From an uncultured virus (IMG/VR IMGVR_UViG_3300029258_003428) (lineage: Duplodnaviria; Heunggongvirae; Uroviricota; Caudoviricetes): a DNA stretch of 20,000 bases. Below the pieces are notes generated by a model. The model made no database searches and had not been told where the DNA came from. It was given only the letters and a program-made list of their open reading frames with translations. Below are positions 2,671-18,596 of the stretch, piece by piece. Each line of letters starts with the position of its first letter. The first letter of the stretch is position 1. The DNA lies in the IMG/VR virus record IMGVR_UViG_3300029258_003428, one strand, 5' to 3'. The position numbers and the translations under genes were made by a program.

Positions 2671-2955
2671 ATGAGCTATCTGGTATGTGGTATCTACGAC
2701 AAACGTCCGGAGGTGTGCCGGCAATATCCGAACCGCTACAGCTACATGCCAGATAGCTGTGGTTACTTCTTCAGCGACAAGCGGGAGGGGTGTTGCTATC
2801 TGGAGTGTCAGGCGGCTTGTTGTATGGAGCCGCGGGAGGGCGGAGAGCCGGGAGGGGCACCTCTGCCCGACATCGCCGGGGGCGAGCCATGCAAGTATCT
2901 CATTTCCGTGGATGAGCCGCCAGAGGGCGCTATAATCGAGAGGCCAGAGGAGTGA
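2671..2955 (+). CDS. YkgJ/CxxCxxCC-family-like Cys-rich metal-binding protein (motif order permuted)
   Basis: CGIYDKRPEVCRQYP, CYLECQAACC and GEPCKYL motifs. Confidence 0.7.
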   Translation: MSYLVCGIYDKRPEVCRQYPNRYSYMPDSCGYFFSDKREGCCYLECQAACCMEPREGGEPGGAPLPDIAGGEPCKYLISVDEPPEGAIIERPEE

Positions 2956-3596
2956 TGGGACGCAAGCTCAGGAAGTTGTCCGAGGGTGAAGAAGTTGAGG
3001 TTCCTGCTTTCCTGCAGGACGCGCGGGTCGTGGTAGTAGACACTGAGACGACGGGGTTCGACAGTAAGAGGGACAGGATCATTGAGATTGGAGCAATTTG
3101 GATCAACCGCGGTAGGGTCGTCACCGAGTTCGGTCGCATCTTGAATCCTGGACGAAGGCTGCCGCTGGACATCATGAAGCTGACGGGGATCACACAGAGC
3201 GAGGTGGATGCGGCAGACCCTTTCTGGAAGATCTCCAGTTTCGTGGTAGATCTTCTCGAGGCTCCATCCGTCATTGTGGCGTACAACAGTCCATTCGACA
3301 TGGGTTTTTTGAAGAGCGAGATCGAAAGGGCTGGGCGGGAAGTTCCACGCTTCGGTCCCGTTATCGATCCACTCAAGTGGACGCGGCACGAAGATCGAGG
3401 TAAGAGTTGCAAGCTGGGCGTTGCTGCGGCGAGGCGCGGCATCGAGGTAGAAGGAGCTCACCGGGCGGTGGACGACTGTAGGATCACTTTGGCGTTGATG
3501 AACACGCTCAAGTTCCCGAGCACCTTGTCTCAGACCATCGAAAATCAGAAGCACTTGAAGACCAACAACTATCGCAGACGCGGTGGTATAAGGTAG
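2955..3596 (+). CDS. DEDDh 3'-5' exonuclease (DNA polymerase III epsilon-like)
   Basis: ExoI VVDTETTG, ExoII AYNSPFDMGFL, ExoIII AHRAVDD; TGATG coupling at start. Confidence 0.92.
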   Translation: MGRKLRKLSEGEEVEVPAFLQDARVVVVDTETTGFDSKRDRIIEIGAIWINRGRVVTEFGRILNPGRRLPLDIMKLTGITQSEVDAADPFWKISSFVVDLLEAPSVIVAYNSPFDMGFLKSEIERAGREVPRFGPVIDPLKWTRHEDRGKSCKLGVAAARRGIEVEGAHRAVDDCRITLALMNTLKFPSTLSQTIENQKHLKTNNYRRRGGIR

Positions 3597-4470: not shown

Positions 4471-5034
4471 ATGGGGTTCCCACGGGACTGGCTTCCGGAT
4501 GTCGCGCAAGTGATCGCAGAGGTTCTGCACGAGAACGCTCTGCGGCGCGGCATACCGGAGACCGTTCGACGATCGGAAATCGTTCTGGAGGGAAGGAATC
4601 CGTTGTTGATGTCCTCGACACACACGACCACCATGAAAGATGGGGCAAAGATCCCTACGTGGCGGGGCAAGAAGTTCGAGGGCAGGGAGTCGCTGAAACA
4701 AGCGATCTCGGACCTGATGGATGGCGTAGATGAAGATGACGGTAGAGGTGCTTTTGGGAATCCAGCTGGAAGATTCCGGTACGATGCTTTCGCCAAAGAA
4801 TTTGCGGCCATCGGGGCGGGTGTACGCAACGAAGATGGCGTTCAAGGCGTTGTGCAAGATTCTGCACGAGAAATACGGGATTGGACTGGACGTGGTGAGT
4901 CAGTCGGCCGAGGCCGCATCATCGATGTGCAGTATGATCGCCAACGGGGACATGGACTGGGAAGAGAACAACCTGATTCGAAAGAAGCGCGAGATGCTTC
5001 GCAGGAGGACAAGGAAAAATGCAAGCCTGGATAG
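4471..5034 (+). CDS. Hypothetical protein (start uncertain)
   Basis: Part of ORF 4132-5034; ATG 4471 follows GGGAGG; fills the gap between neighbours; 3' half overlaps the next ORF. Confidence 0.45.
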   Translation: MGFPRDWLPDVAQVIAEVLHENALRRGIPETVRRSEIVLEGRNPLLMSSTHTTTMKDGAKIPTWRGKKFEGRESLKQAISDLMDGVDEDDGRGAFGNPAGRFRYDAFAKEFAAIGAGVRNEDGVQGVVQDSAREIRDWTGRGESVGRGRIIDVQYDRQRGHGLGREQPDSKEARDASQEDKEKCKPG

Positions 5035-5053
5035 AGATGATCAAACAAAATAA
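4730..5053 (+). CDS. Hypothetical protein
   Basis: Protein-like 107-aa ORF overlapping both neighbours. Confidence 0.5.
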   Translation: MKMTVEVLLGIQLEDSGTMLSPKNLRPSGRVYATKMAFKALCKILHEKYGIGLDVVSQSAEAASSMCSMIANGDMDWEENNLIRKKREMLRRRTRKNASLDRDDQTK

Positions 5054-5684
5054 GGTCACATTCGTCATTGGTGGGCTGATCGTCATTCTGGCCATTGGCG
5101 GTGTCATCTACGGCATTGCCACGAAGGCCGGGGATGAAGGGTTTCACGCGGCGGCGGACGGGACAGTCCTGAAGTGGGACCGCTCGGCCCTGCCGCTGAC
5201 TTGCTTTCACGACACATTCCCCAATGAGGAGCACCAGGCTGCGCTGAAGGAGGCGATCGGGAAGATCTCCAAGGCTGGGATATCGGCGTTCATGCCGTGC
5301 CAGCCTTGGATGGTCTCCGATCCCTTCCCCACAAAGCACGTCAAAAACACGGTCTTGATCAAGGTTGGCGCTCCGCCGGAGCCAGAACGAGAAGTGGTGG
5401 TCACTTCTCCGTTCGAACCGAAGCACGGGGCGTCCACATTTTTAGCTCATGTCAAGGGAAAAGGGATCTACGGCGCGATCGTTTATATCATGCCAGACCT
5501 TGATAAGAAGCTGTACGGTAGGGTCTACCTGCACGAGCTTTTGCACGCCCTGGGCTTGACACACGACCGTGTTCGCGATTCGATTATGTATCCGACAGCA
5601 GCAGAGAGGGCCACCGACCTGTCCAGTAAGGACACTAAACTACTGCTGAAAACCTACGGAGAGCGGAACGATGAGCCTAGCTGA
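5019..5684 (+). CDS. Membrane-anchored matrixin/M10-like zinc metallopeptidase (metzincin)
   Basis: N-terminal hydrophobic helix VTFVIGGLIVILAIGGVIYGIA; HELLHALGLTH (HExxHxxGxxH); Met-turn SIMYP. Confidence 0.88.
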   Translation: MQAWIEMIKQNKVTFVIGGLIVILAIGGVIYGIATKAGDEGFHAAADGTVLKWDRSALPLTCFHDTFPNEEHQAALKEAIGKISKAGISAFMPCQPWMVSDPFPTKHVKNTVLIKVGAPPEPEREVVVTSPFEPKHGASTFLAHVKGKGIYGAIVYIMPDLDKKLYGRVYLHELLHALGLTHDRVRDSIMYPTAAERATDLSSKDTKLLLKTYGERNDEPS

Positions 5685-6144
5685 TCAAATCTGCAGCACA
5701 TTCGGCGCATTGAAGGTCAACCCGACGAGTAAACCCGCGGTGATCAAAGCCGTCCAGGGCGATACCAGGCTGCACGTATCTGTGCGCGTCGATCCAAAGA
5801 AGCTGAAGCCGTGGTTGGCCGCGATGGAGTACGTCTTGAAGAACAAGCAGGGGTGGGATGTTCACCTCTGCAAGCAGTACTTCATTCGAGGCGGCAAGAT
5901 CATGTACGCCTGGAACTTCATCGCGCAGTGGGCGTCGGAGGACATTTCAGAGCAGGTTCTCACAAACATGCTCGAGGTGCTCAAGTTCGCCGCGCGCAAT
6001 ATGCCGAAGGTCGTGCACCAGATAACAGAGTATCCGCTGGCTGGGGCTGGAGACGATCGAAACAAGCCCGAGGGGTCCATGAACCCAAAGGCCAGCGGAT
6101 ACAAGCAGCGTGGGGCACACCCCATCAGGCTGGGAAGGAAGTGA
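5671..6144 (+). CDS. Hypothetical protein
   Basis: 157-aa ORF, GGAG SD, overlaps upstream stop. Confidence 0.7.
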   Translation: MSLADQICSTFGALKVNPTSKPAVIKAVQGDTRLHVSVRVDPKKLKPWLAAMEYVLKNKQGWDVHLCKQYFIRGGKIMYAWNFIAQWASEDISEQVLTNMLEVLKFAARNMPKVVHQITEYPLAGAGDDRNKPEGSMNPKASGYKQRGAHPIRLGRK

Positions 6145-6148
6145 TCTA

Positions 6149-6862
6149 ATGACTGAGTTCGGGCCGGAAACCAGTCTTCAGTATCAGAAGGACCTCTACG
6201 ACAGGGAGAAGCGTGGAGAGACCATCGAGCCCCTGAGCGGGGAGGAGCTCGAGCGGGTCCAGAAATCGATTGAGGCAATGTCGAAGCTCCTCGCTGACGA
6301 CTCGATTATCGCCAAGTACAAGCTCGAGGTTCAGTTCGGGAAGAATCGGACATCCAAGGGCTTCCCCTTCGCCGGTGTCTTGTCTTGTTGGGTGTCTGGA
6401 TCTAAGCTTCACGGCGGTGGGGACGAGAAGATGTACGAGTGCCCCAACAAGCAGTGCAGGGCGTGGATTTTGCCATCAGACTTAGGACACAGCGTGGTCA
6501 AGGACGAGAAAGGGAACCCCAGTGAGGTTCCTGTGGGGTACTGCGGCGGATGCGGATCGGTCTGGCCGGCAGAGCAGTTGATTGGAGAGCGATTCCTCAA
6601 ACTGACGGAGCAGCATTGGGCGCAGGCCATTCTGCAGATCTTCGTGCGCCTGGAGATGAATGCCGACATCTACTTGAAGTACAGCCCAGAGGACGTGCGC
6701 TACAAGGCAATGATGGAGATGGCTCGCAATCGCGGTGGAGAAGAAATCGCCAAGGCTCGACGCCTAAGAGGGCTGAATATCTACCCACTCCGCAACATCA
6801 TCAAAGACACGAAGCACGGAGCTCCGTTGTATGGTAGGATCAGAGCCTTCATCAACGCATGA
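6149..6862 (+). CDS. Hypothetical protein with zinc-ribbon insert
   Basis: ATG 6149 after AAGGAAG; CPNKQC and CGGC pairs. Confidence 0.75.
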   Translation: MTEFGPETSLQYQKDLYDREKRGETIEPLSGEELERVQKSIEAMSKLLADDSIIAKYKLEVQFGKNRTSKGFPFAGVLSCWVSGSKLHGGGDEKMYECPNKQCRAWILPSDLGHSVVKDEKGNPSEVPVGYCGGCGSVWPAEQLIGERFLKLTEQHWAQAILQIFVRLEMNADIYLKYSPEDVRYKAMMEMARNRGGEEIAKARRLRGLNIYPLRNIIKDTKHGAPLYGRIRAFINA

Positions 6863-7230
6863 CCGAACCAAAGACCATAGGAGATCTCCTGGAGTTGTTC
6901 GCTCTCACAGAGCAGGAGAACTCCGTGTGGGGTGAGGTGGAGAGATTCCTTGACACATTTATCTCCACCGATACTTACCAGCCGTCCAAGGGTATAGCCA
7001 CCGTTGTTGGAGACGGAGTCGTACCTGAGGACACAATCGTCCTCGTACGCGATAAGGTCCAAGATATCAGGACCGTGTTGAGCAGAGAGATCGAGCGGAC
7101 CAAAAAGAAACCCATCAGTGCCTCGCCCAAAAAGAAGGCGACGGGCCGGAAAGCACCGAAGCGGAGCAAGCTAAATGTCAAAAAGAAAAAGCAAACCAAA
7201 AAGAAACGCAAAACCTCTGACCGCGCGTAA
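6859..7230 (+). CDS. Hypothetical protein with Lys-rich C-terminal tail
   Basis: ATGA coupling; acidic N-terminus, basic tail. Confidence 0.65.
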   Translation: MTEPKTIGDLLELFALTEQENSVWGEVERFLDTFISTDTYQPSKGIATVVGDGVVPEDTIVLVRDKVQDIRTVLSREIERTKKKPISASPKKKATGRKAPKRSKLNVKKKKQTKKKRKTSDRA

Positions 7231-8257
7231 GAAGGTTCTGCAGAGTAATGTACACCTCCAGCAGACCATCTCGGAAATGGTGAGGGATTTCGACGCCCGG
7301 CGGAATGAGACCGAGAAGCGCATTTCTGAAAGCAACCAGCAGCTCTGGCGCAACCAGCAGGAGCAGAACGAGGGCCTGCGCATCGCTGAGAAACACGCAA
7401 TGATCCAGCGACGTGTCTTCAATGATGCATTGGCTGGGTGCACGCGCGTCACGAGCATCGAGCGGAAGATCCAGGAGGGATCGGACGAGGTGGAAGAGGT
7501 CCAGGTCATCGACTGGGACTGGTACGCCGAGCAGTTGATCAACAGCGCCGATTATAACGACTTCATCGTTGGCGTCCTGGTTCCGGAGGAGACCGTGAAG
7601 CAGAAGACCGAGCAGCGGTCTCAGCGCGCTCGTGCGCAGGTCCTGCACTACTGTGTCTCCAAGGCCCTGGCCAAGGATGAGGCAAAGCTCAGAGAGGCGC
7701 TGGAGGGGGATGGCCTGGAAGGTCTGCTCAAGGACTTCATGCCCAACGGCGTGGATTGGACGGACGAGATGAGTCTCGAGATGGAGGACATTGCCAAGGC
7801 CGGTCTGATGCTTTGGGAGCAGAAGAAGCAGGAAGCCATCAAACGGGCCAAGAAGGTCAGGATCCACAGCGCCATCGATAAGCTGGTCAGGGTTATGCCA
7901 GACGAGTCCATCAGGAAGACGGCAGATCGCATCGAGGCTGGAGAGCCCATCCTGAAGGATAAGGATGGGAACGAGATCGAGCTGAGCGATGAAGAGGCCA
8001 AGGAGGCCGCCGAATTGATGCGTTCCAAGATCAACGATCCCGAAGCCATCGAGAAGGCCAAGAATGAGCTGATGGAGGAGACGGCCGCTGTGGCCAAGAT
8101 AGCCACAGAGGCCCAGGAAGCCATCGCCAAGGGGGACGCTGAGACGGCCGGTAGGAAGATGGCTGAGCTGGAAGAAAAGGTCGAGGAGGCCGAGGCCAAG
8201 GCCCCTGATGACCCAAACAAGCAGTTCCCGGAAGGGGCTTCGATCTTCGGAGGATAA
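7175..8257 (+). CDS. Coiled-coil-rich hypothetical protein
   Basis: 360 aa, E/K/A-rich helical composition. Confidence 0.8.
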   Translation: MSKRKSKPKRNAKPLTARKKVLQSNVHLQQTISEMVRDFDARRNETEKRISESNQQLWRNQQEQNEGLRIAEKHAMIQRRVFNDALAGCTRVTSIERKIQEGSDEVEEVQVIDWDWYAEQLINSADYNDFIVGVLVPEETVKQKTEQRSQRARAQVLHYCVSKALAKDEAKLREALEGDGLEGLLKDFMPNGVDWTDEMSLEMEDIAKAGLMLWEQKKQEAIKRAKKVRIHSAIDKLVRVMPDESIRKTADRIEAGEPILKDKDGNEIELSDEEAKEAAELMRSKINDPEAIEKAKNELMEETAAVAKIATEAQEAIAKGDAETAGRKMAELEEKVEEAEAKAPDDPNKQFPEGASIFGG

Positions 8258-8258
8258 C

Positions 8259-8447
8259 ATGCCGCGTATCATCAGGGGGACAGCCGAGAAGAAGTACAAC
8301 ATCGTCAAGACCCAACATCGTTCAAACATCAACAAGATGCGTTGCCAGGGCTGCAGGTTGGGTTACGCAGAGCGTGTTCAGACGGCCGGCGGGTGGGTCT
8401 ATCGTTGCAACCGGTGCGGCCGGGAGTACACTGTAGACAAGCTGTAG
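8259..8447 (+). CDS. Small zinc-ribbon protein
   Basis: GGAGG SD before ATG 8259; CQGC..CNRC. Confidence 0.7.
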   Translation: MPRIIRGTAEKKYNIVKTQHRSNINKMRCQGCRLGYAERVQTAGGWVYRCNRCGREYTVDKL

Positions 8448-8453
8448 AACTAA

Positions 8454-8490
8454 AGAGAGGTCGGTCGTCCTCTCTAAACCCGAGGGGTTT
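8454..8490. terminator. Two adjacent hairpins after the last + strand gene
   Basis: AGAGAGG/CCTCTCT (8454-8475) and AAACCC/GGGTTT (8476-8490) inverted repeats. Confidence 0.45.
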
Positions 8491-8559
8491 GGCTGATTGC
8501 GGTCTGGTCTTTACGTCACAGAGCACTCAAGTACCCACCTGATTAATCATTTTGTAGCT

Positions 8560-8586
8560 AAGAAAAGACAGCCCGGCCGGGCTGCC
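8560..8586 (-). terminator. Rho-independent terminator closing the array on the - strand
   Basis: Minus strand reads GGCAGCCC-GGCC-GGGCTGTC-TTTTCTT: GC stem followed by a U-rich tract. Confidence 0.7.
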
Positions 8587-9697
8587 TCAGGATGGCATGG
8601 ATTGAGAAGGAGTGTCAGAGCGATCGGGTCTGGATCAGATCGTCGAACTGGTGGGGACCGGACCGCGTTGGGTTGTCGCCACGATCAGGTCTGGCAGGAT
8701 ATGGACTGTCGAGTTGGTTAGATAAGGGCTGTCGCGCCGTGACGGACTGCGCCGTGCGGAGGGGGGACGTCGACTAGGCGCGAGCGGGAGTGGTCAGGCA
8801 TGGTTCGTCTGATCGCGGGGGACCGGGCAGGAGAAGGCTTGTCAGATCGAGAGGGATTGGCCTGTTCCAGCTCGTCGCGAAGGCTTGGCTTATCAGTTAG
8901 GCCCGGCCAGGTCTGTCAGCTGCGTGGTGCGTGAGGGCCGGATCGGGCATGTCGAATCGGATGACGACGAGGTGCGGGTGGGCCAGTCAGCTTGGGTGGG
9001 GTTGAGGAGCGACGGCATGGGATGTCGGCCGGGGCGGGCGTGAACTGGAGCGGGTTGTCGGCTTTGCCAGCACCGGCTCGCAACGGCTCGTAATGAATCG
9101 GACCGTCGAAGTGGATGGGCTAGGAGGGGAGAGGGGAGGCTTGTCAGCACGGGGTGAGGTGGATAGGTCAGGAATGTCGAGCAGTCTCGGCTGGTTTAGG
9201 GTTGGCTTGTCAGGCAGGAGCGGTCCGGTGTAGATCGGATTGTCCAGTCGGTTGGAACAGGCAAGGCATGTCGAGCAGGGAAGGCGCGGCTGATCTTGGC
9301 CCGTCGATTAGGATGGGTAGGGATTGGCTTGTCGGAATGGATCGAATGGGCTTGTCTATGCGGACGGGGACCGAGCGGACCAGGAGAGGTGAGTCGATCT
9401 GAAGTGGATGGGCGCGAACCGGAAGGGTCTGTCGAAAGGTTTGGGATGGGCGGGGACAAGACAGGTGCGTCAGAATGAGGGGGCTCGAGTGAGAGCGAGT
9501 GGGTGAGTCGACCCGGCTTGGTACGCGGTGGTCCGGCATGTCAGCTCGAGAGGAACCGGCTTGGTCTGTCGGACTGGTGTGGTGTGTATGGGACTGTCTC
9601 GTCGGGATCGGGTTGGTTTGATTTGGCGAGGTGTGTCAGGAGGGTCTAAGGTGGGTGGGACCGTGTTGGCTTGTACGGGATAGTCTCAGTGTCTTGT
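8560..9697 (-). ncRNA. Predicted guide-RNA precursor associated with the Cas7-like gene (strand inferred)
   Basis: Array starts at the stop codon of the RAMP gene and ends at a - strand terminator. Transcription is inferred, not shown. Confidence 0.55.
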
Positions 9698-9698
9698 C
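8586..9698. repeat. Non-coding array of ~34 degenerate units: GTC + (GG-NNN)n, 5-nt periodic
   Basis: Hand-parsed delimiter spacings: 28,28,33,33,23,38,38,34,33,18,23,36,35,38,33,48,38,33,33,33,28,33,28,23,39,38,38,38,33,28,28,39,48,13. 29 of 34 equal 3+5n. No credible ORF in the region. Confidence 0.92.
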
Positions 9699-10519
9699 TA
9701 GGCCGCCTTGCCCTTTTTGGGAACCTTCGTCTTGGGAGCCTTCGTCTTGGGCTTGGGCAGCGAGCCCTTCTGGAGCTCCTCGACGGTGAGGAACTTGACG
9801 CGGCCGAAGCCCTGGGACCTCGAGCAGCCGAAGCCGTTATCTTGCGCCAGCTGCATGCAGTAGGTCAAGAACTCCTCGCTCATCCGCTTATCCTTCGGAT
9901 CGGCAAACCATATCTCGAACTCGATGTAGGTACCGGGTTCCACGTAGTCGTGAAACTTGATCGTACTGCGCGGCCCCTGGGGGCCGATGACGTGCGCCAC
10001 CGTCTCTTCATGCCCGTCCGGCTCCACCAGCCGCTTCCTGTCCGCTTCCTTGTGTCCCTTGTCGTATAGGTAGACGCGGTCTGGGTGCTCGCAGCCCCGG
10101 ATGAAGAATGAGTGCTGTAAGATCTGACGAACGCCGCGGTGTACGTTGGTCAGCCCCAGCACCGTTGCGGTCTCCTTGAAGCCGGCCTTGAGTTGCCGCG
10201 TCTCCAGAAAGATGCCATGTCCTTCCGGTTCGATCTTGTCCGGCTCCGCCTTGAACCCCGTCCAGGACTTGAGCTTCGCCTTCTCGCTCTCCTCTATGTC
10301 GTCATCGGACGACATCTCCTGGACGCGGGCTCTGGCCGCCTCCACGGTCTCGTCCTTGACCAGGCCCTTGCGGTGTCGTGCCTCGAGCATGGCCAGCTCG
10401 GATTCCGGATGTTTTGGCCAGCCGCCGAGCAGCCGGTTGGCCGTGACCATTGTCACCTTGTACTTCGTGTAGATGTTGACGTCGTGTTCGCGAACTAGTT
10501 CCTCAAAAGTCCTCTCCAT
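9698..10519 (-). CDS. Stand-alone Cas7/RAMP-superfamily-like protein (Vipr-like)
   Basis: N-terminal strand YKVTMVTANRLLGG; IFLETRQLKAGFKETA equivalent to the RAMP IPGSSLKGxxR helix; DYVEPGTYIEFEI; C-terminal Gly-rich loop GFGCSRSQGFGRV; AAGGAG SD. Confidence 0.8.
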   Translation of the reverse strand: MERTFEELVREHDVNIYTKYKVTMVTANRLLGGWPKHPESELAMLEARHRKGLVKDETVEAARARVQEMSSDDDIEESEKAKLKSWTGFKAEPDKIEPEGHGIFLETRQLKAGFKETATVLGLTNVHRGVRQILQHSFFIRGCEHPDRVYLYDKGHKEADRKRLVEPDGHEETVAHVIGPQGPRSTIKFHDYVEPGTYIEFEIWFADPKDKRMSEEFLTYCMQLAQDNGFGCSRSQGFGRVKFLTVEELQKGSLPKPKTKAPKTKVPKKGKAA

Positions 10520-10559
10520 TTGAGATCTCCTTGTTATTGAGGTTGTTGTGAAAGGGAGC

Positions 10560-11240
10560 TTAGCGCTCCCAAAGAATTGTGAGTTCGTCGTCCTGTACGT
10601 GGATCCATCCGCCAGACGTCTTGTTCTGGTATACTTGCACTACTTGCTGGCACCAGGGCGGCGGCGGGCCGTTCCACATGGACAAGGCCCCTTCGAGCCT
10701 GACAAACTCTCCGGCGTCAGGCTCGAAACATCCCACAGGTAGCGTGACCCGCGGCTTGGGAGTCCTGGGCGTCCCCCAGGTCTTCGATTTCGTCTTCGAT
10801 TCCAGCAGCGCGATGTAGAAGTTCCTCAATGGGATACAAGCCCCTTTCTCGATCAATGTGACCTGTTTCTCTTTCCACTCGTCCTGCCACAGCTCCTCAT
10901 CGATCTCGTGCAGCGTCCCATCCCGTCCGGCTTCTACGATCTTCCCCTCGTGTAGGAAAGCGTAGAGGTTTCCTCCTTTGCACCAACCGAGGGCGGGGAT
11001 CAAATCGCGCGGAACCATCTGTCCGATGTCGTCCCACTCCACCAGGTGCATGTAGAACGTTCTGTCCTCTGCACCACTCGCCCAGACCTTGCGCCCATTG
11101 ACGCTGATCTTCACATGACAGAAGTGTCCCAGCTGCTTGACGCGTCCTGAGCGCTTGATGATGCCGATCATGGGCAAATCCGGTTTGGGGCCTTCAACCC
11201 CAAACCAGATCTGCTTGACGTACCAACTGTACTCACTCAC
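10560..11240 (-). CDS. Hypothetical protein
   Basis: 226-aa ORF, GTGA coupling to the upstream gene; directly upstream of the Cas7-like gene. Confidence 0.7.
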   Translation of the reverse strand: MSEYSWYVKQIWFGVEGPKPDLPMIGIIKRSGRVKQLGHFCHVKISVNGRKVWASGAEDRTFYMHLVEWDDIGQMVPRDLIPALGWCKGGNLYAFLHEGKIVEAGRDGTLHEIDEELWQDEWKEKQVTLIEKGACIPLRNFYIALLESKTKSKTWGTPRTPKPRVTLPVGCFEPDAGEFVRLEGALSMWNGPPPPWCQQVVQVYQNKTSGGWIHVQDDELTILWER

Positions 11241-11485: not shown

Positions 11486-12035
11486 CTTTTGCGATCTCCA
11501 TCTCAACACCAAGCGCCTTACACGCTTCGGCGTAAGCGTCTGCTAGGCCGACCCAAGACTCATCATCTGCGGGCACCAACGATCTTCTGCCACCACGATC
11601 ACGAACCCCGCCGATGGCGCTGACGAAGGATTCGAGCGCCGCGTCTTTGGCTACGATCTGTTCTGTCTGCTCCGCTATGATCTTCTGCAACTCCTCGACA
11701 TTATCCTTGGCGTAAACCCGCTTCATCGTTCCCTCGAACTCCTCTTGTGTGGGGGGAGCGGGGAGCACCATCTTCGGGGCCACGCCAAGACTGTTGCAGG
11801 CCATCATGTAGGCGTCTCCTAAACCGGTCCATGGCTTACCGTTGGTTCTCATACGGACGCCGCCCTTCAAGTTCACGTAGTCCACGAGCGTCTTTAGGGC
11901 TACCCGTTCAAGCTCGTTGGGTCCTTCGCCATCAAGCGCTTGCGCAATGCGCTTGATGGCCTTGATCAAATCGGGGACATCGACCTCGAAGAATCGCACC
12001 CACATCCGTGTTTGAAAGAACTCCAGTCCACTCAT
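11478..12035 (-). CDS. Hypothetical protein with internally duplicated domain
   Basis: ATG 12035 after GGAGGGG; two copies of AL..(L/F)V...GGVR...W.GL.DAY..AC..LGV. Confidence 0.7.
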   Translation of the reverse strand: MSGLEFFQTRMWVRFFEVDVPDLIKAIKRIAQALDGEGPNELERVALKTLVDYVNLKGGVRMRTNGKPWTGLGDAYMMACNSLGVAPKMVLPAPPTQEEFEGTMKRVYAKDNVEELQKIIAEQTEQIVAKDAALESFVSAIGGVRDRGGRRSLVPADDESWVGLADAYAEACKALGVEMEIAKDG

Positions 12036-12385
12036 TGTTTCCCCTCCGTGTAGCGTACCGCCTCTGCGATGCGTTGTCTTAAGATCTTGTGATAGAACGC
12101 TGCATCCTTGTTCCCCTCTTTCTCCATCTTCGCCGCTTGTCGCTCGCATACACCTTGGAGGGCGCGGAGACGACCTTCTATGTTCACGTCTTCGTCCTTC
12201 ACGTCAAACAGGTACATCCTTCCTGCGAAGTCGCAAGCGTTACACACCGTCTCCGTCACTTGTTCTATGTTCTCTGTTGGATCTCGCGCCTCGTCCACAA
12301 TCACCCACCGCTTACCATCCACGAGCTGGTAAACCGTGTGGATGGCCGCGCGTAGATCGGTAGAACCGCACTCTGGGCACTTCAC
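12032..12385 (-). CDS. Zinc-ribbon protein
   Basis: GTG 12385 after AAGGAGG; CPEC..CNAC. Confidence 0.7.
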   Translation of the reverse strand: MKCPECGSTDLRAAIHTVYQLVDGKRWVIVDEARDPTENIEQVTETVCNACDFAGRMYLFDVKDEDVNIEGRLRALQGVCERQAAKMEKEGNKDAAFYHKILRQRIAEAVRYTEGKQ

Positions 12386-12454
12386 GAATTGTCCTCCTTT
12401 TTGTTGAATGCTTCCGGGCATTCTTATCTGCAACGCTGCGCACTTGTTTATTGG

Positions 12455-16552: not shown

Positions 16553-18040
16553 TTACAACTCCTCGTTGATGCACTCGTTGAGATCTTTGTTCCTCCTGAA
16601 GCTGAGAACCTTGGGGAAGGTGAGTGCGTTGCTATCCTGCCCCTTGGATATGTAGCTTCGGTCCTGGTATCCCACTTGCAGGACACCGATCCACATCCCT
16701 TCATCAGCGATGCGCTTGCGTTGGGCGTCCGTCAGGCCGCCGCTCACCTCGCCGATGTAATGCTTCACCCCATCCTTGTCGTACTGGTACAAACTGATCG
16801 ATCCGACCCGCTTCATGTTCTTGCCGGTGCCGTAGGCTCCGTTCGTCTTCAACCGCTTGCCGCATACGGCACACTTACCGCTGCTCGTCTGCTTCTGCAG
16901 CGCGCCATGGTCAGGGACATGACATTTCGTGGTGCAGTGCTCGCGCATGCCGTCAGGTTCCCAGATCCCGATGAAGTCGTCCTCCAGGGCGTTCTTGACC
17001 TTCCAGCAGACGTTCGGCCGATCTGGCTGACCAAGGAAGCTGAGATGCTTCTCGCCCAGCGATCCCCAACAGTCGTACACCACCCATCCCTCGTACCCGT
17101 ACTTCCTCATCTCTGAGATCATGTCGTCGTAAGGCTCGGCAGCAATGTCTGGGCCGTGTACGAACTTGCAGAGATGGAGTCCGGTGTGACCTCCCCACCC
17201 ATCGACGAGCTCCATCAACCAGTCGAGCCAGAAGCTACAGCTGTGGTCCTTCTCGAGGTTGTCCCCTTCCCAGAAGGGCATACGGAACACGTAGGCGTGG
17301 ACCAGGCCGAGCTTGCGCTGCATCTCAATCGCCCGCTCCGGCAGAGAGTTGGCGATTTGCTGCATCGCCTTGAATTCTTCTTTCGTCTTTCCTTCGCCGA
17401 TGTAGAACTCACAGAGCAAGATCGTCTCGGCGGGGAGCAGGGCCTCGAACTCCTCGACCAGGTGCGGGAACTTGTCGTTCTCGACCTTCATCTTCCCGCG
17501 GGATTGGATCCACACAGATCCGTCTCGGTCTTTGGAGACCACGAAGCACATCCCGTTCTTCTTCACGGTCCAGGCCAGCGGGGGACCTCCTACACTCCTC
17601 CCAGACTTCCGTGATTCGAGCTTCCGCAGCTTCTCCTCCTTGATCGAGTTGACGGGCTTCGAGAAGGCCACGTTGTTGGGCAGCGGGCCATCGAAAGAGA
17701 TCTGCTGGGAGCGGGTAACGCCGCCGAGCTCCTCTTCCAACATCGTCGCGAACTTGCCCTTGCTCGGCTTCACAATGATCTCGTACCCCGCCTGCGCTTT
17801 CTTCTTGACGTCGCGGACAAGCTGCTCAAGCGCGGAACGTTCTGGAGAGATCCAGGCTTTCGTGCCCTTCTTTCCCTTCTCACCAGGAATGTCCACCGTC
17901 TCCTGGATCTTCCCGTCCAACACGCCCCACTGGGTGATGACCTCGTCCCCGTCTACCCATCCAGCCCAGACCTGCGTGTTCTTCTTGGCCTCCCGCTGCA
18001 TGCTGCAGTAGGTCTTCTTACTCCTGGGTGTCTTTCTCAT
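16553..18040 (-). CDS. ATP-dependent DNA ligase with N-terminal WGR-like domain and Cys4 insert
   Basis: WGR-like QVWAGWVDGDEVITQWGVLDGKIQ..KKKAQAGY; motif I VKKNG, III LLCE, IV YEGWVV, V WKVK; OB-fold GEVSGGLTDAQR..LTFPKVLSFRRNK. Confidence 0.88.
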   Translation of the reverse strand: MRKTPRSKKTYCSMQREAKKNTQVWAGWVDGDEVITQWGVLDGKIQETVDIPGEKGKKGTKAWISPERSALEQLVRDVKKKAQAGYEIIVKPSKGKFATMLEEELGGVTRSQQISFDGPLPNNVAFSKPVNSIKEEKLRKLESRKSGRSVGGPPLAWTVKKNGMCFVVSKDRDGSVWIQSRGKMKVENDKFPHLVEEFEALLPAETILLCEFYIGEGKTKEEFKAMQQIANSLPERAIEMQRKLGLVHAYVFRMPFWEGDNLEKDHSCSFWLDWLMELVDGWGGHTGLHLCKFVHGPDIAAEPYDDMISEMRKYGYEGWVVYDCWGSLGEKHLSFLGQPDRPNVCWKVKNALEDDFIGIWEPDGMREHCTTKCHVPDHGALQKQTSSGKCAVCGKRLKTNGAYGTGKNMKRVGSISLYQYDKDGVKHYIGEVSGGLTDAQRKRIADEGMWIGVLQVGYQDRSYISKGQDSNALTFPKVLSFRRNKDLNECINEEL

Positions 18041-18596
18041 CGTCCTCTTCCTTTTCCATCGGGAGGTACACGTTGCGTCGCTTATCGCTGTTGTCCTTCT
18101 CGGATCGTATGAGCCCGAGCTTTCGTAGTACCCCAATATGTCTGGAGACTGTCTGTGCTGTGGTGAAAACTCCGACCTCGTCCAGCCCTCGATGAATATC
18201 GCGCAACGCTTTTCTACCCTCGCGAATCAGCTCTAGCACCAACAAGACATCTTCTTTTATACGATGGCCGGCCACAACGAACGGCTGTCTTTGAGCTGTG
18301 AATGGGGCGGACTCCATGATGGCATCGGTTAGAACCAAGAACTGTTCTATGTCGTGTAGGCTTTTCGTCTTGATCCAGACGTGGGCCTGGTCTGTCTTGC
18401 CTGGGGTCACGCACAGGTTGAAGCTCTCAGATTGCCGTTTCATAAACTCCTTCACCTGGGCGAATTTGGAGAACCATTCGAACGAAACTCCCTTCGGCGC
18501 GTTTTCCTTATCCCTCCTCCAAAGCGCGTTGATGTGGTTCCAGTAATTCAGAACCTCGGAGTCGCTAAGGGGCTTGTCAGATCTTCGCTGAGTCAT
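18018..18596 (-). CDS. Winged helix-turn-helix (MarR/ArsR-like) protein
   Basis: C-terminal TAQTVSRHIGVLRKLGLIRSEKDNSDKRRNVY (recognition helix, LxxxGLI, DxR wing). Confidence 0.8.
   Translation of the reverse strand: MTQRRSDKPLSDSEVLNYWNHINALWRRDKENAPKGVSFEWFSKFAQVKEFMKRQSESFNLCVTPGKTDQAHVWIKTKSLHDIEQFLVLTDAIMESAPFTAQRQPFVVAGHRIKEDVLLVLELIREGRKALRDIHRGLDEVGVFTTAQTVSRHIGVLRKLGLIRSEKDNSDKRRNVYLPMEKEEDDEKDTQE

Follow-up and report, generated by a model that had tools for sequence, protein, structure and literature searches.

What is encoded by 1.1 kb of viral DNA that keeps a five-nucleotide (nt) rhythm, has no credible open reading frame (ORF), and never repeats a unit? This question is raised by positions 8586 to 9698 of a 20,000-nt stretch from an uncultured virus (IMG/VR record IMGVR_UViG_3300029258_003428). 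The stretch, which we will call the window, covers bases 30915-50914 of a virus record that is complete, has terminal repeats, and is 178,259 bp long. We conclude that the region is very probably an array of guide RNAs (vrRNAs) belonging to a VIPR system and that the adjacent gene encodes the Vipr of that system. The VIPR family, phage-borne gene silencers related to CRISPR, was already published in 2026 preprints; the branch defined by this gene's protein, P0001, is large and uncharacterised. The features that matter most are:

8586..9698, minus strand favoured for transcription, with the plus strand as the rival: pentamer-coded array of about 34 abutting units, recognised by its sequence grammar
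9698..10519, minus strand: putative vipr gene for P0001, a 273-amino-acid stand-alone Cas7/Csm3-like RAMP, from its fold, profile, and homology
8556..8586, minus strand: terminator-like element closing the array, a GC hairpin (8570-8585) and then TCTTTTCTTAGCTA, read from the sequence and from a scan
8454..8475, minus strand: second terminator-like hairpin of 7 pairs with the tail TTAGTTCTAC, between the array and the plus-strand genes ending at 8447

The array fills the gap of about 1.1 kb between convergent genes: the plus-strand genes stop at 8447, and at the other end the array borders the minus-strand gene and overlaps its stop codon. The plus strand of the array is 42.7% G and 19% C, and these 1,113 nt contain 47 GTC triplets. 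An initial annotation, made from the sequence, had described GTC delimiters spaced 3 + 5n nt apart around pentamers of the form GG-NNN. All 35 of the delimiters that it listed carry the triplets it gave (33 GTC, CTC at 8586, and ATC at 8892), and 29 of the 34 spacings equal 3 modulo 5. These in-phase spacings are 33 (nine times), 38 (seven), 28 (six), 23 (three), 48 (twice), 18, and 13; the five that are out of phase are 34, 35, 36, 39, and 39. Units cut at the delimiters do fall into pentamers that begin with G, and mostly with GG, and no two units are identical. Tandem Repeats Finder (TRF) misses the array, as had been anticipated, and gives just two tiny rows within it (9070-9090 and 9124-9138).

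Read from the minus strand, a unit consists of GAC + (NNNYC)n, where n ranges from 2 to 9 and is mostly 5-7. (The plus-strand equivalent is GTC + (GRNNN)n.) A Viterbi parse of the minus strand describes nearly the whole array as GAC plus NNNYC pentamers. The 29 in-phase units contain 168 pentamers. In the minus-strand reading, 148 of these have C at position 5 (17 have T), 113 have C at position 4 (33 have T), and 59 of the 64 triplets are used at positions 1-3. Read from the plus strand, G occupies position 1 in 88% of pentamers and position 2 in 67%, and position 3 (T 31, G 40, C 44, A 53) has no pyrimidine preference, which leaves three free positions. The delimiter itself is better described as a 3-nt register shift inside a wider junction, ..GGnwT GTC r.., than as the bare GTC that was first proposed, although the triplets are present. 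On the minus strand the junction is ..YY GAC A..: the pentamer ahead of GAC ends with two pyrimidines, and the pentamer after it has an A-rich first base and is most frequently AAGCC.

The five-base periodicity of the array is confirmed. Its local period-5 power for G is 0.66, whereas 500 shuffles that preserve dinucleotides give 0.236 ± 0.030 and do not exceed 0.339 (z = 14). The autocorrelation has peaks at lags of 5 and 10 and then at 18, 23, 28, 33, and 38, which is the pattern of a 5-nt lattice that is displaced by 3 at each junction. Across the 178,259-bp genome, the array is the top period-5 signal (0.76, against a mean of 0.212 and a standard deviation of 0.064); the next peaks are at 0.51 and 0.47, and the first of these lies less than 600 nt from the array. 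The initial annotation had proposed that both GG and GTC be compared to shuffled sequence, and here the triplet by itself falls short: with all 47 GTC taken unselected, the top modulo-5 class holds 39.6% of the pair distances of up to 60 nt, while the shuffles average 27.5% and reach up to 40.5%. For the unselected minus-strand motif [CT]GAC, 22 of 30 spacings equal 3 modulo 5.

P0001, the product of the gene that touches the array, has no match in Pfam or PHROGs. Its sequence contains a hairpin that makes up the thumb (..AHVIGPQGPRSTIKFHD..), a loop rich in glycine (NGFGCSRSQGFGRV), and a lysine-rich C-terminal tail. The AF2 model (predicted local distance difference test score, or pLDDT, of 84) has a long β-hairpin at residues 169-193 and a glycine-rich loop (G-loop), GFGCSRSQGFG; QGPRS at the thumb tip and GFG(C/A)SRSQGFG in the loop are conserved. 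Two histidines, H136 and H176, do not vary among close family members, and the set of residues invariant in type II Vipr does not include them. When the model was compared to the PDB with Foldseek, the matches listed were all Cas7-family chains, among them Csm3, type VII Cas7, and Cmr4 (E from 8e-7 to 3e-5), with template modelling scores of 0.33-0.57 on the target. We also collected 20 homologues of P0001, of which one is labelled Csm4/RAMP by its source, and a 20-sequence profile matches Csm3/RAMP chains by sequence (E 1e-5). The model thus points to a stand-alone RAMP with an RNA recognition motif core, a thumb, and a glycine-rich loop.

A model of three copies of P0001 predicts head-to-tail association, with a score of 0.65 versus 0.00 for the best of 3 controls; the runs had at least 80% contact agreement and a partner pLDDT of at least 70. 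(In the calibration of the tool, 20 of the 30 homo-pairs with solved structures attained the mark used for this score, as did 1 of 23 single chains.) Because Cas7 filaments are among the solved structures, this pass may reflect likeness to them.

According to the available text of the VIPR preprints, a Vipr is a lone RAMP, mainly phage-borne, and vrRNAs are tandem 5-nt repeats with fixed and variable positions (bioRxiv 10.64898/2026.04.26.720920, hereafter the first VIPR preprint). In the canonical vrRNA, GGY is fixed and NN is free, and a structured tail follows (same source). Each repeat is bound by one Vipr protomer, the free bases pair with double-stranded DNA while every third target base is skipped, and the natural targets are rival satellites and prophages (bioRxiv 10.64898/2026.04.26.720920 and 10.64898/2026.04.26.720927). 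The first VIPR preprint counts seven types and 667 systems, states that VIPR "typically" has two genes, and gives NNNGG, YNNNG, and NNNNG as alternative repeats (Methods section 20). It also describes "staggered" arrays, in which the next vrRNA begins where the previous one ends; these are not among the architectures that it confirmed by small-RNA-seq. A later preprint based on a genomic language model reports 21 clusters with other fixed trinucleotides (bioRxiv 10.64898/2026.10.21.760802).

For a profile comparison with a known Vipr, we placed the locus of Escherichia phage SUSP1 (type II) in KT454805.2 and gathered relatives of its Vipr. In hhalign, a profile of 88 P0001-family sequences matched a profile of 24 SUSP1-type Viprs with Prob 95% and E 3.9e-8. 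The alignment has 138 columns and is colinear; it extends from helix 1 to the G-loop and takes in the thumb. Single-sequence hhalign comparisons of P0001 with SUSP1 Vipr and vap1 were not significant. In the alignment, the guanine-reading residues of SUSP1 Vipr, D177 and W178, lie opposite C232 and S233 of P0001.

The tail of P0001 deserves a comment. It is encoded at the 3' end of the gene (9701-9760, minus strand), is rich in lysine and proline, ends in ..PKPKTKAPKTKVPKKGKAA, and comes partly from a 15-bp tandem repeat (TRF, 9717-9751). Most P0001 relatives have a basic, poorly aligned C-terminal tail, and SUSP1-type Viprs do not. This tail could provide an extra contact with nucleic acid.

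Is the pairing of gene and array general? A search of IMG/VR with the single P0001 sequence found no relatives, and an alignment query was needed. The family comprises 1,506 representative clusters at E ≤ 1e-3 and 904 at E ≤ 1e-10, and the atlas clusters are 92-100% viral. We fetched 85 loci that encode P0001 relatives (30 from IMG/VR and 55 from metagenomes); 72 of these are distinct, and 65 have at least 1 kb of flanking sequence. An array was called if there was a period-5 signal of at least 0.55 within 2.5 kb of the gene. By this threshold, 39 of the 65 loci have a C array on the gene strand. A G signal on that strand passes in 4 loci, 3 of which also have a C signal, and C is stronger than G in 51 of the 65. 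Furthermore, the RAMP gene is the sole ORF family that is common to all 85 loci. Apart from it, the families that recur consist of its own antisense shadows, an ORF within the arrays, and neighbours in at most 15 loci of a distant subfamily; the conserved neighbours in that subfamily contain RusA and SLOG domains and include no system-specific partner.

Arrays lie directly after the gene in four of the loci that we viewed (L019, L014, L040, and L096) and directly before it in two others (L033 and L015). They range from 0.4 kb to about 3.5 kb (L018). The delimiters are:

Window: yGAC
L040: CTCGAC
L019: CCCGAC
L033: CCGACTAC
L015: CTTCGAC
L014 (46% GC): ATTGCAAC

These six delimiters have a core in common. 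A register shift of +3 is seen in the window, in L012 and L014, and in L040 (30 of 45 spacings), L044 (23 of 40), L015 (7 of 9), and L096 (6 of 10); L019 has a shift of +4 (26 of 39) and L023 one of +2 (16 of 33). In L040, the gene is 67% identical to that of the window at the DNA level, and the two arrays do not have a single 13-mer in common.

Two of these loci have further features of their own. In L014, the delimiter (C)ATTGCAAC recurs every 33 or 38 nt across 6790-7200. We take this delimiter to resemble the 8-nt 5' handle of type I and III CRISPR RNAs (AUUGAAAC and AUUGCGAC), and the likeness may stem from a shared ancestor or be due to chance. L011 (4850-6200) encodes two different Vipr-like proteins in tandem on one strand: a type II-like gene ends at 5025 and is followed by canonical GGC/NN arrays; then comes a P0001-family gene (5264-5926), a GAC-delimited NNNCC array, and another GGC/NN array.

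We place the locus in the VIPR family because of the profile homology, the RAMP fold, the genomic context, and the grammar of the array. The array fits the description of a staggered VIPR array with two fixed bases. The initial annotation had proposed about 34 distinct guides whose phase is kept while their content is free, and this proposal is supported, as a gene for a Vipr homologue touches the array and the same pairing occurs in 39 of 65 loci. Given the homology of P0001, we would expect RNA-guided DNA binding and silencing of rival elements. By analogy with type II, RAMP protomers would form a head-to-tail row along the RNA, with a protomer at every pentamer, and each protomer would clamp the two fixed bases and offer the variable bases for recognition of double-stranded DNA. 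The recognised DNA of rival mobile elements would then be silenced. The guides would abut, and at each minus-strand junction (..YY GAC A..) the 5-nt register would move by 3; we infer that a filament of 5-9 protomers comes to an end at this shift and that another begins there, whether or not the RNA is cleaved. One transcript would thereby carry about 34 different guides. If it comes from the minus strand, this transcript would be shared with the gene and would end at the hairpin at 8556-8586, and the guides would be C-rich RNA with YC as their fixed mark.

Which strand is the guide? In type II systems, G is stronger than C on the gene strand at 67 of 68 distinct loci, so arrays on the sense strand are the rule there. 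The sense strand in the P0001 family is C-rich, and therefore its guides are either antisense to vipr or C-rich themselves. The genomic context favours the minus strand over the plus strand on which the initial annotation had read the guides, and we think that the C-rich minus strand, which is the sense strand of the gene, is probably the one transcribed into guides. On that strand, the stop codon of the gene marks where the array begins and a hairpin and U-run mark its end, a form that is kept in L040, where a different hairpin is followed by the same TTCTTAGCTA. Also, the upstream-type array of L033 stops about 25 nt ahead of the start codon, with just a ribosome-binding site in the gap. In L011, both vipr genes, the GGC/NN arrays, and the C array share one strand. 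In the cultured Microcystis phage Mae-JY09 (L096; PP395641.1:37713-38850), a P0001 homologue (29% identity, annotated as hypothetical) is followed by a CCGAC-delimited C-rich pentamer array of about 400 nt and then by a strong hairpin, and all 14 of the annotated genes that we viewed lie on the array's C strand. A C-rich reading is also favoured by L027, an AT-rich locus in which five NNNCC pentamers and then two hairpins lie on the sense strand (the repeats-then-tail layout of type II), and by the alignment of D177 and W178 with C232 and S233.

If the sense strand is the guide, P0001 and its relatives might use a mirror image of the known VIPR code, with C-rich sense guides, a YC mark, three readable bases per protomer, punctuation by register shifts of 2-4 nt, and a Vipr that reads cytosine. 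We advance this full scheme tentatively, as plausible but short of probable. The guides would be co-transcribed with vipr and punctuated without tails, ribozymes, or promoters; each register shift would end one filament and nucleate the next, giving 30-90 guides per transcript; and the Vipr would have exchanged its guanine readers (D177 and W178 of SUSP1) to read cytosine. A word search of the text of the first VIPR preprint found no mention of a C-rich sense strand.

Several results weigh against this picture, either against the identification as VIPR or against the C-rich strand. The marks given in the available text of the first VIPR preprint are all G-based (GGY, NNNGG, YNNNG, and NNNNG), and the plus strand of the array fits NNNGG, so an antisense G-rich RNA may be the guide. 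A 20-sequence P0001 profile did not match type II Vipr significantly (E 0.028, Prob 1.7%), and a search of the SUSP1 genome with this profile found nothing; the link between P0001 and Vipr thus depends on the deeper profile. The 85 loci revealed no conserved accessory (vap) gene, and the window's neighbouring genes recur in none of them, although the wording "typically" in the preprint implies that a vap gene is not obligatory. By our threshold, 26 of the 65 loci have no clear array, including L009, the closest relative in IMG/VR (45% identical). Sense-strand terminators after the array were found in just 6 or so of the 24 loci scanned, which makes the terminator census weak (L039 in that scan is the window locus itself), and one other genomic copy of the window's terminator motif lies between convergent genes and is ambiguous. 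Among the RNA runs that were checked for the locus, none was listed with it.

Searches for targets were blank as well. In the virus's own genome, the variable triplets at 5-nt spacing gave 370 matches, versus 368-373 in shuffles. The unit at 9105, with seven pentamers, gave 0 matches in IMG/VR for each exact pattern (skipping 0, 1, or 2 bases), with its own record possibly excluded. For 379 guides from 16 arrays, compared as triplets to 1.2 Mb of local phage DNA, there was no excess of matches at periods 3 and 4, and the period-5 matches were the arrays themselves. For 278 guides with at least 6 pentamers (from 15 arrays), dinucleotides at period 3 showed no excess over shuffles in the same 1.2 Mb: perfect matches numbered 7 (N1N2) and 11 (N2N3) among the 278 guides and 28 and 29, respectively, among 834 shuffles. 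Because these searches were small (one unit in IMG/VR and 1.2 Mb locally), they say little. The variable bases also had no codon signature in the form of a unit-specific GC phase (pooled z = 1.3). Stop triplets are depleted on the C strand (96 versus 135.6 expected), and we considered this as a codon signal; however, the depletion is just as strong for ATA, TTA, and GTA and does not affect TGA, so we attribute it to general avoidance of TpA.

The closest competing explanation keeps the VIPR system and turns the RNA around: the guides would be G-rich plus-strand RNA (GG + NNN), antisense to vipr and transcribed towards it from a promoter near 8480-8585. All of the characterised Viprs read guanines, G is at plus-strand pentamer positions 1 and 2 in 88% and 67% of cases, and the preprint's alternative list does include NNNGG, YNNNG, and NNNNG (bioRxiv 10.64898/2026.04.26.720920). 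We regard this arrangement as possible but rather doubtful, as a search of both strands of 8100-10700 found nothing that resembles a promoter, the array overlaps the stop codon of the gene, and no plus-strand terminator lies ahead of the gene. Across the family, the asymmetry is systematic (C reaches the threshold in 39 loci and G in 4), an outward promoter would have no space beside upstream-type arrays, and P0001 does not conserve the guanine readers of SUSP1, D177 and W178.

Could the variable bases instead be neutral filler? The array RNA might be a scaffold or sponge coated by the RAMP, perhaps as a filament, to sequester a host factor, or as a decoy for the CRISPR proteins of the host. 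This would account for the blank target searches, for the use of 59 of 64 triplets at the variable positions without a codon signal, for the wholly different array content of L040 despite a 67% identical gene, and for what we take to be the likeness of the L014 delimiter ATTGCAAC to the 5' tag of CRISPR RNAs. We nevertheless judge it highly unlikely: the target searches were tiny, a guide library would require just such non-identical units in a strict register, the family is homologous to Vipr, and the variable bases of VIPR have been found experimentally to be the guide (bioRxiv 10.64898/2026.04.26.720920). Fainter still is the prospect of an element that acts as DNA, such as a replication origin or iteron field, a cluster of primase sites, or DNA that is curved or prone to form G-quadruplexes. 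The T7 primase recognises GTC, there are 47 GTC in 1,113 nt, and the locus lies among genes for DNA metabolism (a DnaQ-like exonuclease and a ligase-like protein). Yet the sole conserved partner of these arrays is an RNA-binding RAMP, their orientation is fixed relative to its gene, and their size (0.4-3.5 kb), 5-nt register, and free content are unlike iterons.

We dropped several other ideas because they leave the conserved partner protein unexplained: a sponge of GGA sites for CsrA/RsmA, TRAP-like binding at 5-nt steps, a C-rich sponge resembling the rut sites of Rho, an array of Chi sites, the RNA repeats of a type III toxin-antitoxin system, T7-type primase sites at GTC, and G-quadruplex tracts.

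The hairpin with TTCTTAGCTA (on the T-run strand) occurs three times in the genome, at G000:C1:39469 (window position 8555), 104128, and 168951, and once in L040 (3595-3625). It looks like a terminator consensus that is specific to this clade, to judge from these copies. The motif TAGCTAAGAA was considered as a -10 element and is not recognisable as such. A scan of 8300-9900 against Rfam at E ≤ 1 found no match, and neither the array nor the whole window had a match by DNA similarity in phage GenBank. The array (region 8400-9800) is present with 0 differences in contigs from four public DNA runs in three studies (sediment, 2018, and seawater, 2021); since these runs may be the source of the virus record, the identity is not independent evidence.

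Of the 35 likely genes in the window, 28 have no match in Pfam or PHROGs, the array's neighbours have none in Pfam, and no cas family was matched among the 35 in either database. TRF found no CRISPR-like repeats in the window. Seven genes have a library match, including:

2952-3596: DnaQ-like exonuclease
5019-5684: matrixin-like peptidase motif
8208-8447: weak zinc-ribbon protein, convergent on the array
12032-12433: faint match to a PHROG of unknown function
16553-18136: ligase-like protein
18018-18596: winged-helix protein

VIPR is a months-old class of RNA-guided DNA binders and the proposed ancestor of the CRISPR RAMPs, and only type II has been dissected. The P0001 branch adds very large arrays (34 units here, and up to about 3.5 kb in relatives) with a denser code of three free bases per step. 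Its apparent inversion of strand polarity is a notable feature of this uncharacterised branch. If the guide strand is C-rich, the recognition chemistry of the family would be more plastic than has been published, and callers that look for GG-type arrays on either strand would mis-orient the guides or miss them. Because Mae-JY09 is cultured and carries the same module, the strand and the rule are directly testable there.

How does the window compare to known systems? The nearest published form, as described in the available text of the first VIPR preprint, is staggered VIPR, which likewise has a lone phage Vipr RAMP, no cas genes, abutting guides, and 5-nt repeats with fewer fixed bases than GGY; the window differs by its C-rich sense strand. 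Its array is not canonical GGY/NN, and it is NNNGG only if the plus strand is read. The type II system of SUSP1 (KT454805.2) has vipr at 28474-29061, vap1 at 28031-28471, and four vrRNAs. It resembles the window in its homologous protein, in having fixed and variable pentamer positions, in being borne by a phage beside genes for DNA metabolism, and, we would expect by analogy, in binding one protomer per pentamer. However, SUSP1 repeats are GGY + NN, with 9-16 per guide, while the window has two fixed and three free positions and 2-9 pentamers per unit. Each SUSP1 guide has its own promoter-like site and structured 3' tail, whereas the window has about 34 abutting units and one terminal hairpin. 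The gene strand is G-rich in SUSP1 and C-rich in the window, and SUSP1 has a Vipr of 195 amino acids with a vap gene, as compared to a protein of 273 amino acids with a basic tail and no conserved partner.

The clusters found with the language model are also period-5 arrays beside Vipr-like folds, with marks other than GGY (GAC/NN, CAC/NN, WGT/NN, and TGH/NN; bioRxiv 10.64898/2026.10.21.760802). They were modelled as three fixed and two free positions. The window has two fixed and three free positions and delimiters that shift the register, a form that the available text of that preprint does not describe. Finally, the backbone of class 1 CRISPR effectors (Cas7, Csm3, and Cmr4) belongs to the same fold family, with a thumb and a G-loop; it shares with P0001 a head-to-tail oligomer (predicted here) and RNA lengths that are quantised by the number of protomers. 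In contrast, class 1 CRISPR has a 6-nt step without base-specific marks, repeats of at least 23 nt, acquired spacers, and many cas genes, while the window has delimiters of 3-8 nt, a 5-nt step, and no other cas genes found in our scans of it.

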